In this document: positions 14,276 through 21,239 of the stretch, piece by piece
Position numbering within the stretch: position 1 is the first letter of the stretch
Layout of the letters: each line of letters begins with the position of its first letter
Assembly (NCBI GenBank): GCA_002436105.1
Contig: DIXU01000004.1
Span: 40,166 to 72,165, forward strand
Origin: Candidatus Aminicenantes bacterium UBA6072
Lineage (GTDB): Bacteria > Acidobacteriota > Aminicenantia > UBA2199
Reading direction: 5' to 3'
DNA: 32,000 nucleotides
Position numbers and translations under genes: made by a program
The notes under the pieces: model-generated
Told to the model about the DNA's origin: nothing
The model's input: only the letters and a program-made list of their open reading frames with translations
The model's database searches: none

Positions 14276-15913
14276 TTGCCAATCGCCGACATCCCATTCC
14301 GGTTGCGCATCGGCATTACCGGCCACCGGACCATCAATGATCCCGAAACGGTTTCGCGGCAGATCAGGGATTTCCTGCATGAGCGGATATGGGAATTGTT
14401 CGATCCGCCGGCAGGGAGAAAAAAATCCGGCACGCGCCTCGCTTTCACCCTGCTGAGCCCCCTGGCGGAAGGTGCCGATCGTCTGGCCGCCGCCGAGATC
14501 CTCAAGATCGCCGATTCCGAAATTGAAGCGGTTTTGCCCATGGCCGCGGGCGACTATGAGCGCGATTTTGCCACGTCCGAGTCCCGGGCCGAATTCCATG
14601 ATCTGCTCAGCCGGGCCGGCAGAACGATCGTGCTGAAAGAAACTGCCTCCGACAACACCCTGGACGAGGTGCGCAGAAAAGCATACGAGGCGGCCGGCCG
14701 ATATGTCGTCGACCATTGTGACCTGCTCATCGCCGTGTGGGACGGCATGCCGGCCCGGGGCAGGGGAGGCACGGCCGAGATCGTCGCCTATGCCCGGGGA
14801 AAAAAGCTGCCGCTGATCGTCGTTTCTTCGCTTGATCCTTATGACATAACACTTGAAAAGGGATCGGGGCTGAACGGTCAGGCCTATATCCGGCTGGGGG
14901 TTTTCAATTCATTTGCCATCGCCGCCAATGTCCGGGATGCGTATGTCGACAATATGCACCGGGACCTGTTCGCCAATCCCGATGGTGAACGGCTGGACGG
15001 GGCGATAAGAGAACGCATCCGTTCCGGGCTGCTGCCCTGGTATGTGCGGGCTTCTTCGATCGCCAAGCGCAGCCAGAAAAACTACCTGCGGGCCGGGCTG
15101 CTGGTCTATTCCCTTTCGCCGCTGGCGGTGGCGGCGGTGGCCCTGGCCATTCTCATGCCCAAGTGGGCATCGCCGGCCTTTGTCGTCGAATTCATCCTGC
15201 TGGGGATTATCCTGTTGGTCATCGTGTCATCGGACAGGCGCAGAACCCATCAGAACTGGATCGAGGCCCGCTTTCTGGCCGAACGCATCCGCTCGGCGAT
15301 CTTTCTGACGGCCGGCGGCGTCCAGGCTTCCTGCCTGGTGCACATTCACGCCCTGAGGCCGCAATTGGAAGCCGGGGCGTGGACCATCCAGGCTTTCGAT
15401 GAAATCATGAGACGCATGGGGCCGATTGAATGCTGTGACCAAGCCGGCTGTGATCTCGGCATCGCCTACGTGCGCCGCCACTGGCTGCAGGATCAAATTC
15501 ATTTCCATGTCTCCAAGGCCCAAAGATCGCAAAAGGCCGGTCATCGCCTGGAGAGAGCCGGCTGGCTGGTCTTTATGACCGCTTTTTTTATTGCGGCGTG
15601 GCATCTGATCGAACTGTTTCTTGGTCATCCGGAGATTTTGGCCTGGCTCGGGAAACCTCTTGTTTTTCTCGCTGTTGTGCTGCCGGCCATCGGCGCCACC
15701 CTGGGCGGCATCCGCGGCCACCGCGAATATTCCCGCCTGGCCAAACGCAGCCAGTACATGCAGGCCGTGTTGTCCGACATGGACAGTCGCCTGGCGAACA
15801 TTACCCAGGCCAAGGAGCTGACCGCCCTCCTGCAGGAAACCGAACAGCTGATGCTGCAGGATACCCAGGAGTGGCTGATGCTGATGAAGTTCGCCAAGGT
15901 GGAGGCAATATAA
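14276..15913 (+). CDS. SLOG domain (YpsA/DprA/LOG-like Rossmannoid) fused to a C-terminal multi-TM SLATT-like domain
   Basis: The frame opens at 14267. There is no in-frame ATG before aa ~88, so the start is TTG 14276 (GGGAG at 14266-14270), 9 nt after the upstream stop. SLOG motifs are RIGITGHR, LSPLAEGADRLAAAE and LLIAVWDG..ARGRGGTAEIVAYARGKKLPLIVV. The C-terminal half has hydrophobic helices LLVYSLSPLAVAAVALAIL, FVVEFILLGIILLVIV, WLVFMTAFFIAAWHLIELF and LVFLAVVLPAIGATLGGI, followed by a charged tail. Confidence 0.85.
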   Translation: MPIADIPFRLRIGITGHRTINDPETVSRQIRDFLHERIWELFDPPAGRKKSGTRLAFTLLSPLAEGADRLAAAEILKIADSEIEAVLPMAAGDYERDFATSESRAEFHDLLSRAGRTIVLKETASDNTLDEVRRKAYEAAGRYVVDHCDLLIAVWDGMPARGRGGTAEIVAYARGKKLPLIVVSSLDPYDITLEKGSGLNGQAYIRLGVFNSFAIAANVRDAYVDNMHRDLFANPDGERLDGAIRERIRSGLLPWYVRASSIAKRSQKNYLRAGLLVYSLSPLAVAAVALAILMPKWASPAFVVEFILLGIILLVIVSSDRRRTHQNWIEARFLAERIRSAIFLTAGGVQASCLVHIHALRPQLEAGAWTIQAFDEIMRRMGPIECCDQAGCDLGIAYVRRHWLQDQIHFHVSKAQRSQKAGHRLERAGWLVFMTAFFIAAWHLIELFLGHPEILAWLGKPLVFLAVVLPAIGATLGGIRGHREYSRLAKRSQYMQAVLSDMDSRLANITQAKELTALLQETEQLMLQDTQEWLMLMKFAKVEAI

Positions 15914-15964
15914 TCAGATTATTCTTATTGATATCTCCAAAGATCGATCTTGAAAGGAGAGGAG

Positions 15965-18900
15965 ATGGTCAAATTTGAGCAAGTTGAATGGCCAAAGGCG
16001 TATATTTTCATCTCTTCGACTTTCAACGACATGCACGCGGAACGGGATTACCTAGTCAAAAATGTCTTTCCCCGACTATTGGAATGGTGCGAAGAACGCA
16101 AGATTCGTATGGTTGATATCGATTTAAGATGGGGTGTTTCCGAAGATGACTCCACCAATCGTAATGTTGTTAAGACCTGTCTGAAGAACATCGACAAGTG
16201 TCGTCCTTTTTTCATCTGTCTACTGGGGCAGCGTCGGGGCTGGGTACCCAGGAAGGAGGATATCTCTTCAGAGACATACCAGGAATTTTCCAAAATCAGT
16301 CAATATGCCGGAAACGCTTCCGTCACCGAGATGGAGATTCTACATGCCCTGATCGATCCGTTTCACCGGGCAAAGCGGTTGGGCTTCATTCATAATAAAA
16401 AGTCGGGGTTTGATCCCGTCCAGCATGCCTTGTTCTATCTTCGCGACAACACGTATCTGGATTCTTTGCCCAGCTTTCCCGGTTTGTTGCGAAAGACCTT
16501 CACCAATGAATGGATCGAAAACCAAACTGAACGGCAGATTGCGGACACGGAGCTGAAGCGATGGCGGGAAAGGTTGATTCCAGCTACGGGTAAGTTGGTC
16601 CGCCACTATTCCGCACGATGGAACCCGGAGGCCACAAGCCCCGAGTTGAGGTTACCCTTGGTCTGCCCCTCTCAGGGTGACAAGGCAATGGAAAGTTGGC
16701 GGAGGCAGTGGAGTCTGGCCGGAATTGCATTGCAGAGCCATGAGAGGGAAATCCCTTCGAGTATGCAAGAGGAGGCCAATCTATTCAATGCCGCCTTTAC
16801 CCAAGGGAGGCTGAGTGACTTCAAGACGGATTCTCAAGAGCTCGGAGAGGTGATCTTTGCGGATCTTAAACGTGCTATCGGCGAACGGTTCCATAAGTAC
16901 ATTCTAGCAGTTGAAAGTAGGGGAGGGCAGGATGGTACCCTACAGAGAGAGCTCGACCAGCAAGAACAATTTTTGTGGTCAAACAGTGAGGGGTTCATCG
17001 AGCGTAGCGGTGACTTCACTCTGTTGGATGCCTATGCGGCGGATGAATCTCGCAAACTCTTCGTATTAACCGCCGAAGCAGGGATGGGGAAATCGATGCT
17101 TTTGGCCCGGTGGGTAGACCGCTTTCGAGGAATTGTCAACCCCAAGCAGCGAGAGAGTCTTCACTTTCGCTTCATCGGTCAGAGTGACCAATCCACTTCC
17201 TTCTACCCACTTTGGCGTTCGTTGCTTCAGGAGATCCAGCAGCAGACAGAAAAACTTTGGGATGAGAAAGTCAAAGATGCCGAAGGTCGGGAGATCCAAG
17301 CGACTGCCATACCGGTCGATCCGCACAAACTCCGGGATTCCCTCCCCGATATATTGCAAAATATCGGGAGTCAAGGCAAGACCATCATTGTACTGGACGC
17401 CCTCAATCAGTTGGATACGGGGCTCGGTGAGTTGAACTGGCTGCCTGATGAATTGCCAGAGGGCATCAAGATGATCGTCAGTTTCAAACGGGATCCCGAT
17501 AACCCAAATGCCGCTTCCTTTTTTGAGAGTCTGAAAGGGCGAGCAGAATTAGCAGAAATCAGACCCTTTGATAGTATTAAGGACCGGGAAAGACTCATCG
17601 GTAAATACCTTGAACAATACCTCAAACAACTGGAGCCCATCTATGTGAAGGCTTTACTGGAGATTGAGGCCTCTAAAAATCCACTCTTTTTAAAAATTGT
17701 TTTAGGTGAACTCAGGATCTTTGGCTCTTTCCACAACATTAAAGAGAAGATTTACTCCGATTTCGGCCAAGATCCCATTTCTGCCTTTATCGGGGTACTG
17801 AAGCGGCTCGAGACCGATACGGCTCATACTGCCATTGCTACAAAAATGGCTGTACCTGTAATCTTTGGGCTATTGGCGCATGCCCGCTCTGGACTTTCGG
17901 CGAATGAACTAACGCAGATGCTAGAGGCTTCTCTCGAAGGAGAGAAGAGAGAACTCCTTGATTCAGTCCGAGAGACCGTCCATTTCTATCTTCGTCAACT
18001 CCGTCCTTATCTGGCGAGAAAGGAAGGACGGTTCGATATTTTCTATGAGAGTTTCAGGCTGGCCATCCTAGGGCGATATGTGAAGGAAGGTGGGGAGGAC
18101 CATAAAAGCGGCTTTTACAAAGGGGAGTGCCCCCATCAGACGACTGACATGCTGACCCTGACGTCTCAGGCTTGGCATGGCATCCTGGCTGATCACTTCC
18201 ACGGTCTTCCGCTTTGGCAAAAACAAGATCCCGAAGTGAAGGGAGGATCAGGCGGGGCTTCCGAAGAGCCCCAGGCCGATTACTGTGATCATCCCAATAT
18301 GCGGAAAGTCTCAGAGCAACCCTTTCACCTGACTATGTCCGGAGATTGGGCTCGGGTTGAAGTGACGCTGTGCGATCTGTGGTTTGTTGAGGCCAAAGTT
18401 AGACTTGGTCTGGTTTTTGAGTTGCAGGAGGATTACCGTTTGGCTCTGAACACTCTACCGGAAATGGAATCGGTTTTGCGTGACCGCCGGGAACATCAGG
18501 AACGGATCGATAACTGGACTAAGGCAGTCCTCGCCCATGCTCGGACGTGGAGCCAGAGACGGGAGCGAATGTCTCGTGGAGAGACCATTTCCGAGCCCGA
18601 GCCAATGTTGCCTATTCCACCCACCCTTTGTCGCATGTGGAGCCAGGAGGAAATAGATTCCGAATGCCAGCGTAGGAGTGATCACCCCAAACGGTTGGAT
18701 AGGTTAAAGGCCTTCTCAGAGTTTCTGAATACTGAATACTATGCTTTTCTTGATTTTGGTTCCCGGGTGGGGTTTGTGCTCCAGCATGCATTCAATCGGT
18801 ATCCCACAGGTCCGGTCCATACCCAGGCCACCAAAGAGATGGGGAAAATCCATACCCCACTCCTTCTACGCCATTGGTCTGCCGATGCAACTACTAATTC

Positions 18901-20837: not shown

Positions 20838-21109
20838 AATAATGTATTTACGCGGTTTTTTTAATATAATGCACTTGTCACTCACATCACAGCCTTGACC
20901 CCTATGGTACTGGCCAAATTACGAAGTCTATTTCTGAATATGCTAATTGTGCAACAATATATTTTTCCGGAACCCATCGACTTTATCATCGAGTCCCAAG
21001 AGGCTGAGACGGGTTAAAAATATGATAAATTCAAGGTTTACCGGTCTTTCAATCTCTTTCCTTAAAAATCTTTTACAAAAGGCCAGCAAACTCCTGAATG
21101 CATTGTAAA

Positions 21110-21239
21110 ATCCGATTTCGCCGCAACAGTGGACAGTAAAAATCTGTAAACACTTCTTCATGAAGCCGATCAATTGCTGCTCCAGAAAACCTAGGAGTGG
21201 CTCCTGCTGATGAAGTTCGCCAAGGTGGAACCGCTCTAA
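21110..21239 (+). pseudogene. Decayed 3' end of a second SLATT-type gene, possibly extending back to about 21030
   Basis: Frame translation is TLLHEADQLLLQKT*EWLLLMKFAKVEPL*. The intact gene ends TALLQETEQLMLQDTQEWLMLMKFAKVEAI*. An in-frame TAG at 21192 replaces CAG and a TAA lies at 21147. The last 37 nt (21193-21229) match 15867-15903 at 35/37 positions. Confidence 0.75.

Follow-up and report, generated by a model that had tools for sequence, protein, structure and literature searches.

A decayed SLATT 3' end beyond a DUF4062-NACHT-WD40 gene records cassette exchange downstream of SLOG-SLATT in an Aminicenantes defence island

Contig DIXU01000004.1 of Candidatus Aminicenantes bacterium UBA6072 carries a variable defence island between a tRNA-Lys gene and a gene for an APH-family phosphotransferase. 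The stretch of this contig that was analysed, called the window here, is 32,000 nucleotides (nt) long (positions 40,166 to 72,165, forward strand). In the right part of the island, a gene for a STAND-like NTPase with a RyR domain is followed by an intact SLOG-SLATT gene, by a gene with DUF4062, NACHT and WD40 domains (the WD40 gene), and by gene debris that ends shortly before APH (Table 1). The debris includes a second copy of the end of the SLOG-SLATT gene. This second copy, about 125 bases of SLATT 3' end in decayed form, lies 5.3 kb downstream of the intact gene. It is the footprint of a cassette exchange that is real, well documented and mechanistically ordinary; the kind of event is already known, and this case of it is new.

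Table 1. Features of the island and of the SLATT-APH junction (window coordinates)
Feature	Position	Strand	Basis and remarks
tRNA-Lys(CTT)	474-548	-	ARAGORN; Rfam tRNA 72.5 bits; left anchor of the island
Remnant of the ancestral APH -35 (ATTGTCAATATCC)	581-592	+	Alignment with tRNA-APH intergenic regions of L107/L110 (GCTTGTCAATCATCC...TATAATGGCA)
Variable defence island, about 20.7 kb	593-21307		Boundaries approximate to a few nt
RyR-domain STAND-like NTPase, 879 aa	11627-14266	+	Pfam RyR E 2.2e-21; upstream partner of SLOG-SLATT
Intact SLOG-SLATT gene, 545 aa	14276-15913	+	AlphaFold2 fold match, SLATT_3 match; 702 homologues
Repeat copy 1	15827-15903	+	Last SLATT helix, residues about 518-543 (model helix 512-539); core 15867-15903
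SLATT tail, stop codon and 36-nt 3' untranslated region	15904-15949	+	L085 allele type; left inner edge of the insert
DUF4062(TIR-like)-NACHT-WD40 gene	15950-20701	+	1583-aa open reading frame; called product 1578 aa from ATG 15965; cargo
Decayed spacer and 5' end (~33 codons) of an X-type DUF4062 gene (MPQQTKVFRVF...)	20743-20857	+	blastn, tblastn
AT-rich filler, about 250 nt	20858-21110		Within 20702-21110 (38% GC)
SLATT 3' relic	21111-21239	+	21111-21192 L085-like; 21193-21229 identical to copy 1 at 35/37
Terminator-like hairpin	21260-21280	+	Consensus scan; directly after the relic; region kept in L001 and L003
Promoter-like site for APH, TTGTTA-16-TATAAT	21286-21313	+	10/12 match; -35 from island DNA, -10 ancestral
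APH-family phosphotransferase	21343-22443	+	Pfam APH E 1e-15; first core gene right of the island

The original prediction, made from the letters of the window and their open reading frames (ORFs), had noticed a repeat of 37 nt at the end of the SLATT gene (15867-15903) and again at 21193-21229. The repeat is confirmed. Its copies stand in direct orientation and differ by two mismatches, and the 37-mer matches nothing else in the window, nor anything in 100 shuffles that preserve dinucleotides. Ungapped similarity reaches 77 nt at 82% (15827-15903 against 21153-21229; blastn E 8.5e-18). Further upstream it drops to 70%, and then to about 30-45%, over another 85 nt. When the protein is used as the query, tblastn aligns SLATT residues 504-545 to 21111-21236 (55%), and a nucleotide profile made from the SLATT 3' ends of 11 loci matches the relic at 21117-21238 (E 1.4e-24).

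In the SLATT register the relic reads TLLHEADQLLLQKT, stop, EWLLLMKFAKVEPL, stop, with the in-frame stop codons at 21147-21149 and 21189-21191, as had been proposed. Its identity as a decayed SLATT 3' end also holds; its extent had been put too short, since about 125 nt (42 codons and a stop) are recognizable. The AT-richness described upstream of the second copy is present as well, the copy being set in a stretch of 37-44% GC: the proportion of G and C (GC) is 38% in 20702-21110 and 44% in 21111-21192, against 61% in the matching part of the intact gene. When the whole island was scanned for long-range direct repeats, the only others found were internal repeats of the WD40, TPR and AAA genes.

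The same junction can be seen with other contents in relatives of this locus, which are contigs traced from the closest SLATT homologues (designated by L numbers). The order of a RyR-STAND gene followed by SLOG-SLATT is kept in all close relatives except L084, where a RyR match is absent among the three genes upstream of SLATT. In L003, the SLATT gene is followed after 127 nt directly by APH. This is the empty site that the original prediction had named as a check, and relative to it the 5.3 kb between the two copies in the window are an insertion. L003 is collinear with both copies of the repeat, its SLATT 3' end matching window positions 21153-22465. The L003 contig is probably a long-read assembly, to judge by its many frameshifts. 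L003 could be either the ancestral state or an allele that lost the DNA between the repeats by deletion; either way, recombination at the SLATT 3' site is implied.

Six further alleles, L001, L002, L083, L084, L085 and L105, carry alternative cargo at this junction, which was the other check. In L001, SLATT is followed by the decayed 5' part of a DUF4062-NACHT gene (about 600 nt), then by a minus-strand gene for a 1447-aa DUF4062-WD40 protein, and then by APH. The decayed part is a plus-strand stump (11646-12237) that resembles the DUF4062-NACHT gene of the window and is joined 10 nt past the SLATT stop codon. L002 and L084 have a DUF4062 gene of a different type from that of the window, called X-type here. 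Downstream of SLATT, L083 has, at 5175-7666, a 41-aa ORF and then a WD40-only ORF of 789 aa, L085 has an AT-rich spacer followed by a small truncated gene, and L105 has a minus-strand WD40 fragment of 308 aa, a 146-aa gene and then APH.

In L003 and in every relative with alternative cargo, homology with the window stops within 20 nt of the SLATT stop codon on either side, at 15904-15933. On the right side, homology with L001 restarts at window position 21235, at the stop codon of the relic. In distant Acidobacteriota loci, nucleotide identity of 83-91% is confined to the SLATT gene and breaks off precisely at the stop codon. The decayed copy, the empty site, the alternative cargo and the clustered breaks bear out the general proposal that downstream STAND genes are swapped by recombination at the SLATT 3' end. 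Survivorship explains part of this clustering at gene ends, since recombinants persist only if their genes are intact. Assemblies of the same strain (SRR943309, SRR943311, SRR943313 and JGI 3300001567) match the window at 99.9-100% identity, without variants.

Two side observations concern the surroundings of SLATT in these relatives. A conserved 146-aa protein (MLAIKLH...) adjoins SLATT loci of several lineages, in L105 (8889-9329), L011 (11854-12294) and L073 (9135-9548), and is truncated in L085 (3504-3656). A segment of about 200 nt lies immediately upstream of SLATT in L009 (9628-9833), L014 and L028, and immediately downstream of the SLATT stop codon in L012 (11702-11908, 81%). This pattern resembles a circular permutation and could reflect circular or tandem intermediates.

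Blocks of the last 360 nt of SLATT (15550-15913) were compared among the window, L001, L002, L083, L084, L085 and L105. The last third of the gene is a mosaic, in which two hypervariable blocks (53-65% between types) are shuffled independently among conserved blocks. The final 45-50 nt or so (QEWLMLMKFAKVE) are conserved and lie beside a hypervariable block. The left and middle parts of the relic are nearer to L085 (34/40) and L083 (31/40) than to the intact copy (28/40), and have LLHE..QLLLQ in common with L085; in another comparison, the left part matches the other allele type at 19/42 and the proximal copy at 12/42. The last 37 nt of the relic are nearest to the resident type, with 35/37 against 28-30/37. 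The best overall match to the relic is L084 (30/40 and 34/37).

At the end of the intact copy, L085 is the only allele to which the tail and 3' untranslated region (UTR) can be aligned (score 27, with 6 for other alleles), and a shuffle test of this match on the UTR alone gives p=0.003. The one diagnostic site within the 37-mer is G in copy 1, as in L083, L084 and L105, and C in the relic, as in L001, L002 and L003. A second junction of this kind is found in L105, which is L001-like through CAGGAGT and then identical to L083 at 18/18 positions (against 14/18), with L083-like cargo downstream. L105 is an independent crossover in the same stretch of about 15 nt (CAGGAGTGGCT) as the one proposed for the window. 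L085 changes allele type elsewhere, about 180 nt before its SLATT stop codon.

The repeats may be read as the scar of homologous recombination, most simply of a single reciprocal (Campbell-type) crossover, an account in which belief and doubt are evenly balanced. Before the event, the resident locus consisted of the SLATT 3' end, a terminator and then the APH promoter, an order that persists in L003 and, from the relic to APH, in the window. The incoming DNA molecule would have come from an L085-type locus and was probably circularised after uptake. It would have brought with it the terminal 80-130 nt of its SLATT gene, the tail and 3' UTR of that gene, the WD40 gene and trailing debris. One reciprocal crossover in the conserved terminal block (at about 21185-21202 / 15859-15876) would then have had two results. 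On the left, SLATT would have been rebuilt intact from the resident body and the incoming tail and UTR. On the right, a hybrid, functionless 3' fragment, with an incoming left part and the resident tail and terminator, would have been displaced to a position next to APH. A dedicated recombinase would not be required. The conserved terminal block would act as the last homology handle before the variable cargo, and the gathering of breakpoints at the SLATT stop codon in many relatives would follow from this.

A single crossover accounts for the intact hybrid gene, the hybrid stump beside APH and the L085-like type of both inner edges. The homology segment is directly duplicated on both flanks of the insert. 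GC changes in steps across the region, at about 60%, 50%, 38% and 70%, and the 5.3 kb between the copies are extra DNA of lower GC. The hairpin just beyond the relic is probably the original SLATT terminator. The window and L001 are collinear at 93% over 10535-15909, and flanking genes are 85-94% identical; since RyR-SLATT is no closer than its flanks, this suggests that the RyR-SLATT body is resident and was not recently imported.

Several points weigh against the single crossover. The inner sides of the two copies are L085-like and the outer sides resident-like, but mosaic natural alleles could mimic this. Mismatches within the relic are unevenly spread (2/37 against 14/40, Fisher p=0.0016), but as proof of a chimeric relic this test was set aside, being not decisive given the conservation profile of the family: any two SLATT alleles show a conserved end beside a hypervariable block, so a sharp drop in identity does not prove a chimera. 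The 'CCG' feature of the relic tail is also present in L085 and L105. A search for a donor with this WD40 gene gave none beyond same-strain contigs, and the nearest other homologue is 56% identical; in L085 itself, SLATT is followed by a gene other than a WD40 gene. The proposed circular intermediate is hypothetical. To account for the X-type relic within the insert, the donor must have carried it beforehand, or a further event is required, and the 41 nt between the WD40 stop codon and this relic are not significantly SLATT-like (p=0.2). Finally, a search of 80 distant loci, each with its own sequence, found no further 3' relic within 10 kb of SLATT, which implies that insertion-duplication is not the usual outcome, and L001 has upstream of APH at most a 19-nt SLATT-like remnant (CTAAAGTGGAAGCATTTTG, p about 0.03).

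A possible SLATT stump upstream of APH in L001 is absent from the nhmmer matches. A weak match lies 200 nt downstream of SLATT in L085 (p about 0.03). In the search for the donor, a metagenome scan with the SLATT protein gave no new close allele, and the best match of a genome scan was 53% identical.

A serious rival, possible if on the doubtful side, is the replacement that the original prediction had offered as its second alternative. A foreign RyR-SLATT-WD40 block with its debris would have been swapped in, and the old SLATT 3' end left stranded. The ancestor would have had a different, L084- or L085-like SLATT allele beside APH; the left join would have been homologous and the right join illegitimate, and the old gene would have been deleted except for its last ~125 nt. 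Replacement is viable because natural alleles are mosaic and block transfer is documented. Mosaicism allows one natural allele to join an L085-like middle to a resident- or L084-like end, in keeping with L084 as the best overall match to the relic. Block transfer can be seen in L105, whose RyR-SLATT block (3374-7697) is 93-95% identical to the window (11592-15904) and to L001 (7316-11638), whereas its flanks are only 70-78% identical. The edges of this block are sharp, at about 35 nt before the RyR start and within the last 40 nt of SLATT. Near identity between such diverged flanks implies that whole RyR-SLATT blocks move between genomes as units. Gene stumps, both 5' and 3', are common too (L001 11646-12237; window 20743-20857; and L012 19665-19895, a 5' fragment of a RyR-STAND gene).

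The allele types speak against replacement. Replacement does not predict a single type for the intact tail with its UTR and for the left part of the relic, and their agreement would be a coincidence. In L003, moreover, the SLATT gene next to APH is of the resident type and not of the L085 type. The RyR-SLATT body of the window looks resident, being about as similar to L001 as the flanking genes are. The evidence thus leans to the single reciprocal crossover.

Site-specific integration at an att site in the SLATT 3' end, by a recombinase acting in trans or since lost, is improbable. Integration of this type leaves an insert flanked by direct repeats from the 3' end of the target gene, as here, and restores the target, which is present as a full-length ORF of 545 aa; the empty site of L003 and two independent junctions within the same ~15 nt would fit as well, and the position of the L009 segment relative to L012 hints at circular forms. 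Yet no integrase, transposase or resolvase domain is present among the scanned window ORFs, and similarity fades over 125 nt around an imperfect core (35/37) rather than ending at the core. Other recombinants cross over elsewhere, as L085 does at about -180 nt. The cargo is one host-type immune gene with dead fragments, and the 37-mer codes for a conserved helix, so that its conservation is explained without an att function. From the first alternative of the original prediction, the inserted element and its replacement 3' end survive; the att-like nature of the repeats does not, given their imperfection, the varying crossovers and the lack of a recombinase among these ORFs.

The third alternative of the original prediction, in which the SLATT region was duplicated in tandem and its distal copy then decayed, is more improbable still. 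It would explain the direct orientation of the copies and the stop codons of the distal one. However, by both of the counts given above, the left part of the relic is nearer to another allele type, that of L085, than to the intact gene. The intervening DNA differs in GC and contains the stump of a third gene type, and the empty-site allele puts the original position at the distal copy. Chance similarity, or a second copy that belongs to an unrelated functional gene, is effectively excluded: the similarity is far above random expectation in the shuffles and the profile search, the relic is in the SLATT frame and broken by stops, and the 76-aa minus-strand ORF that gene callers place at about 20943-21173, overlapping the left edge of the relic, has no Pfam record, lies within the filler of 38% GC and is present solely in same-strain contigs.

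The junction is part of a larger variable region. In three island-free relatives (L107/L108, L110 and L112), tRNA-Lys(CTT) lies about 65 nt upstream of APH, and their APH is 71-82% identical to that of the window, where 20.7 kb separate the two genes. The ancestral APH promoter has been split: its -35 (TTGTCAAT) remains by the tRNA and its -10 (TATAATGGCA) by APH, while a new -35 (TTGTTA) comes from the island. The promoter halves kept at either end delimit the variable island. The relic marks the original right end of this island, which consists of the SLATT 3' end, the terminator-like hairpin and the replacement -35. In this Aminicenantes/Acidobacteriota lineage, defence islands have a hotspot between tRNA-Lys and APH. 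The island frame and the DUF4062 relic within the cassette both go beyond the original prediction.

According to Pfam, the genes of the island code for a double-AAA protein, a DUF4062-NACHT-TPR protein, Lcl_C, a Prs-like protein, RyR-STAND, SLOG-SLATT and DUF4062-NACHT-WD40, and relics lie among them. Its GC is patchy (41-64%), and is 60-70% to its right. The tRNA is the only match of an Rfam scan. The island lies directly against the 5' side of the tRNA, unlike an insertion at a tRNA 3' end, and Pfam scans of 19 window ORFs, including every ORF of at least 300 aa between 767 and 31696, found no integrase, transposase or resolvase domain. APH is syntenic with a Macro gene and a 407-aa gene in all relatives. 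PADLOC called no system for RyR-STAND, SLOG-SLATT or APH.

Other parts of the island are of separate interest. Its left part (767-7041) codes for a double-AAA+ protein with weak IetA-like PADLOC matches, and holds a second DUF4062-NACHT gene, with TPR repeats, of about 43% GC that was probably acquired separately. A Prs-like ribose-phosphate pyrophosphokinase is encoded on the minus strand at 8720-9742. Its gene is also found in L001 and twice in L003, and is absent from the island-free relatives; it is an odd neighbour for immune genes that consume NAD.

The 545-aa protein is rightly called SLOG-SLATT. In its AlphaFold2 model (predicted local distance difference test score 86.4), long helices occupy residues 253-539, and the duplicated segment codes for the last of them. 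YpsA is the founding SLOG protein, and a SLOG-SLATT protein class was reportedly described by Burroughs and colleagues in 2015; its members have a Rossmannoid SLOG domain (YpsA/LOG/DprA-like) at the N-terminus and, at the C-terminus, SLATT, a helical effector domain with two TM segments. The predicted fold of the N-terminal domain has B. subtilis YpsA (2nx2) as its only significant match in the PDB (E 1.3e-4, probability 1.00, template modelling score 0.67 on target). Sequence searches for the SLOG domain gave weak Nuc_deoxyrib_tr matches in 2/32 homologues, and a PDB sequence-profile search for it gave no match. SLATT_3 is found in the window protein with E 2e-4 at 22.1 bits, below the cut-off of 26.3 bits. 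Among the 32 aligned homologues, SLATT_1 is found in 20, SLATT_3 in 16 and DUF4231 in 8. The RyR-STAND gene adjoins SLATT in about 33/82 loci and is its commoner partner; only about one SLATT locus in four has a DUF4062 gene within 10 kb.

The WD40 gene has about 50% GC, and its product has an N-terminal DUF4062 domain, a central NACHT/STAND NTPase and C-terminal repeats. Pfam gives WD40 and beta-propeller matches, with nine WD40 stretches, and PF13271 (DUF4062) and PF24883 (NPHP3_N) are on record for an identical protein, P0121. Recent work has shown that DUF4062 is a TIR-like NADase and that sensors of the Avs-type STAND group use it as their N-terminal effector (bioRxiv 10.64898/2026.05.01.722283, 10.64898/2026.09.04.749371). 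In the DUF4062 domain of the WD40 protein (15965-16444), CLKNI stands where the paralogue and the X-type genes have CL(S/G)EI. Further along, in a stretch that may hold the catalytic glutamate, the protein keeps TEMEIL, an instance of the motif TE(M/F)EIL, roughly where E97-E108 of the published proteins would predict it.

The X-type relic is a second layer of past cargo within the cassette. It is 82-86% identical by blastn to L002 11616-11686 and L084 6240-6311, matches by tblastn with E 3e-7, and contains stop codons. In L002 and L084, the X-type gene begins right after the SLATT stop codon, and the decayed spacer of the relic is a copy of the one between SLATT and the X-type gene. A second SLATT stump was considered for the 41 nt between the WD40 stop codon and the X-type relic (20702-20742) and was rejected: anchored alignment to the SLATT ends of L084 and L002 is not significant (p=0.2-0.35). 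The filler that follows has no homology by blastn or tblastx to any of the fetched loci.

The order of events can be read from the displaced stump, the second stump and the empty-site allele. The locus would be an example of NLR-like sensor exchange without the machinery of mobile elements, in which the layers allow dating. The short conserved block in which a neighbouring immune gene ends would be homology enough for the gain of a 5-kb sensor gene. For annotation, such stumps can serve as marks of recent cargo turnover. A lead to function lies in the repeated occurrence of the SLOG-SLATT effector together with variable, TIR-like STAND sensors.

By analogy, SLOG-SLATT might be a shared effector and its 3' junction a docking point for interchangeable DUF4062-NLR sensors, a speculative proposal that is rather unlikely. 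If it were true, labour would be divided much as in Thoeris: DUF4062 would make an NAD-derived product, SLOG would sense the product, and SLATT would open a pore. The near-invariant block of the last helix might then be kept partly as a recombination handle for sensor swapping. In Thoeris types I, III and VII, exchangeable TIR sensors occur with a SLOG or SLATT effector (bioRxiv 10.64898/2025.12.03.692087). The likeness lies in a conserved SLOG/SLATT effector, for nucleotide sensing or pore formation, beside variable proteins with TIR-like domains. The published DUF4062 proteins deplete NAD+ rather than signal, unlike what a Thoeris-like scheme would have them do.

Orphan modules of Rhs and CdiA proteins are a close parallel (PMC3967940, PMC4927057, PMC6336857). 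There too, new 3' material arrives by recombination in a conserved stretch of a gene, and the earlier 3' end is pushed downstream, where it persists in direct repeat and can recombine again. In the window, a displaced SLATT 3' fragment likewise lies downstream of gained DNA, in direct repeat with the main gene. The unit exchanged in Rhs and CdiA is, however, the protein's own toxic C-terminal domain with an immunity gene, and the orphans usually stay coding. Here the SLATT C-terminus was restored almost unchanged and a separate downstream sensor was gained, while the stump is dead: 42 codons with two in-frame stops, and neither an open frame nor a partner gene.

Integrative islands duplicate the 3' end of their target gene, giving attL and attR at the 3' ends of tRNA or protein genes. 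They share with the window the direct repeats of the target 3' end around the insert, the reconstituted target and the empty sites. The window differs from them in that no recombinase gene was found among its scanned ORFs, the core is not exact, similarity is graded over about 125 nt, and crossovers vary between alleles. Campbell-type insertion-duplication, a single crossover of a circular molecule that is used in insertion-duplication mutagenesis, predicts duplicated homology on both sides of an insert and reciprocal hybrid copies. In the window, the near-identical homology would be short, a few tens of nt inside some 130 nt of diverged sequence, and the circular donor is hypothetical.

At a larger scale, the locus resembles the core defence hotspots of P. 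aeruginosa (PMC10250203) and the P2/P4 hotspots (PMC9122126). In each of these, variable immune cargo lies between conserved anchors, and alleles differ by presence or absence of cargo or by its content; here the large-scale anchors are tRNA-Lys and APH. What distinguishes the window is its inner anchor, which is itself an immune component, SLOG-SLATT, so that exchange takes place at the block coding for its last helix and not at a housekeeping flank.

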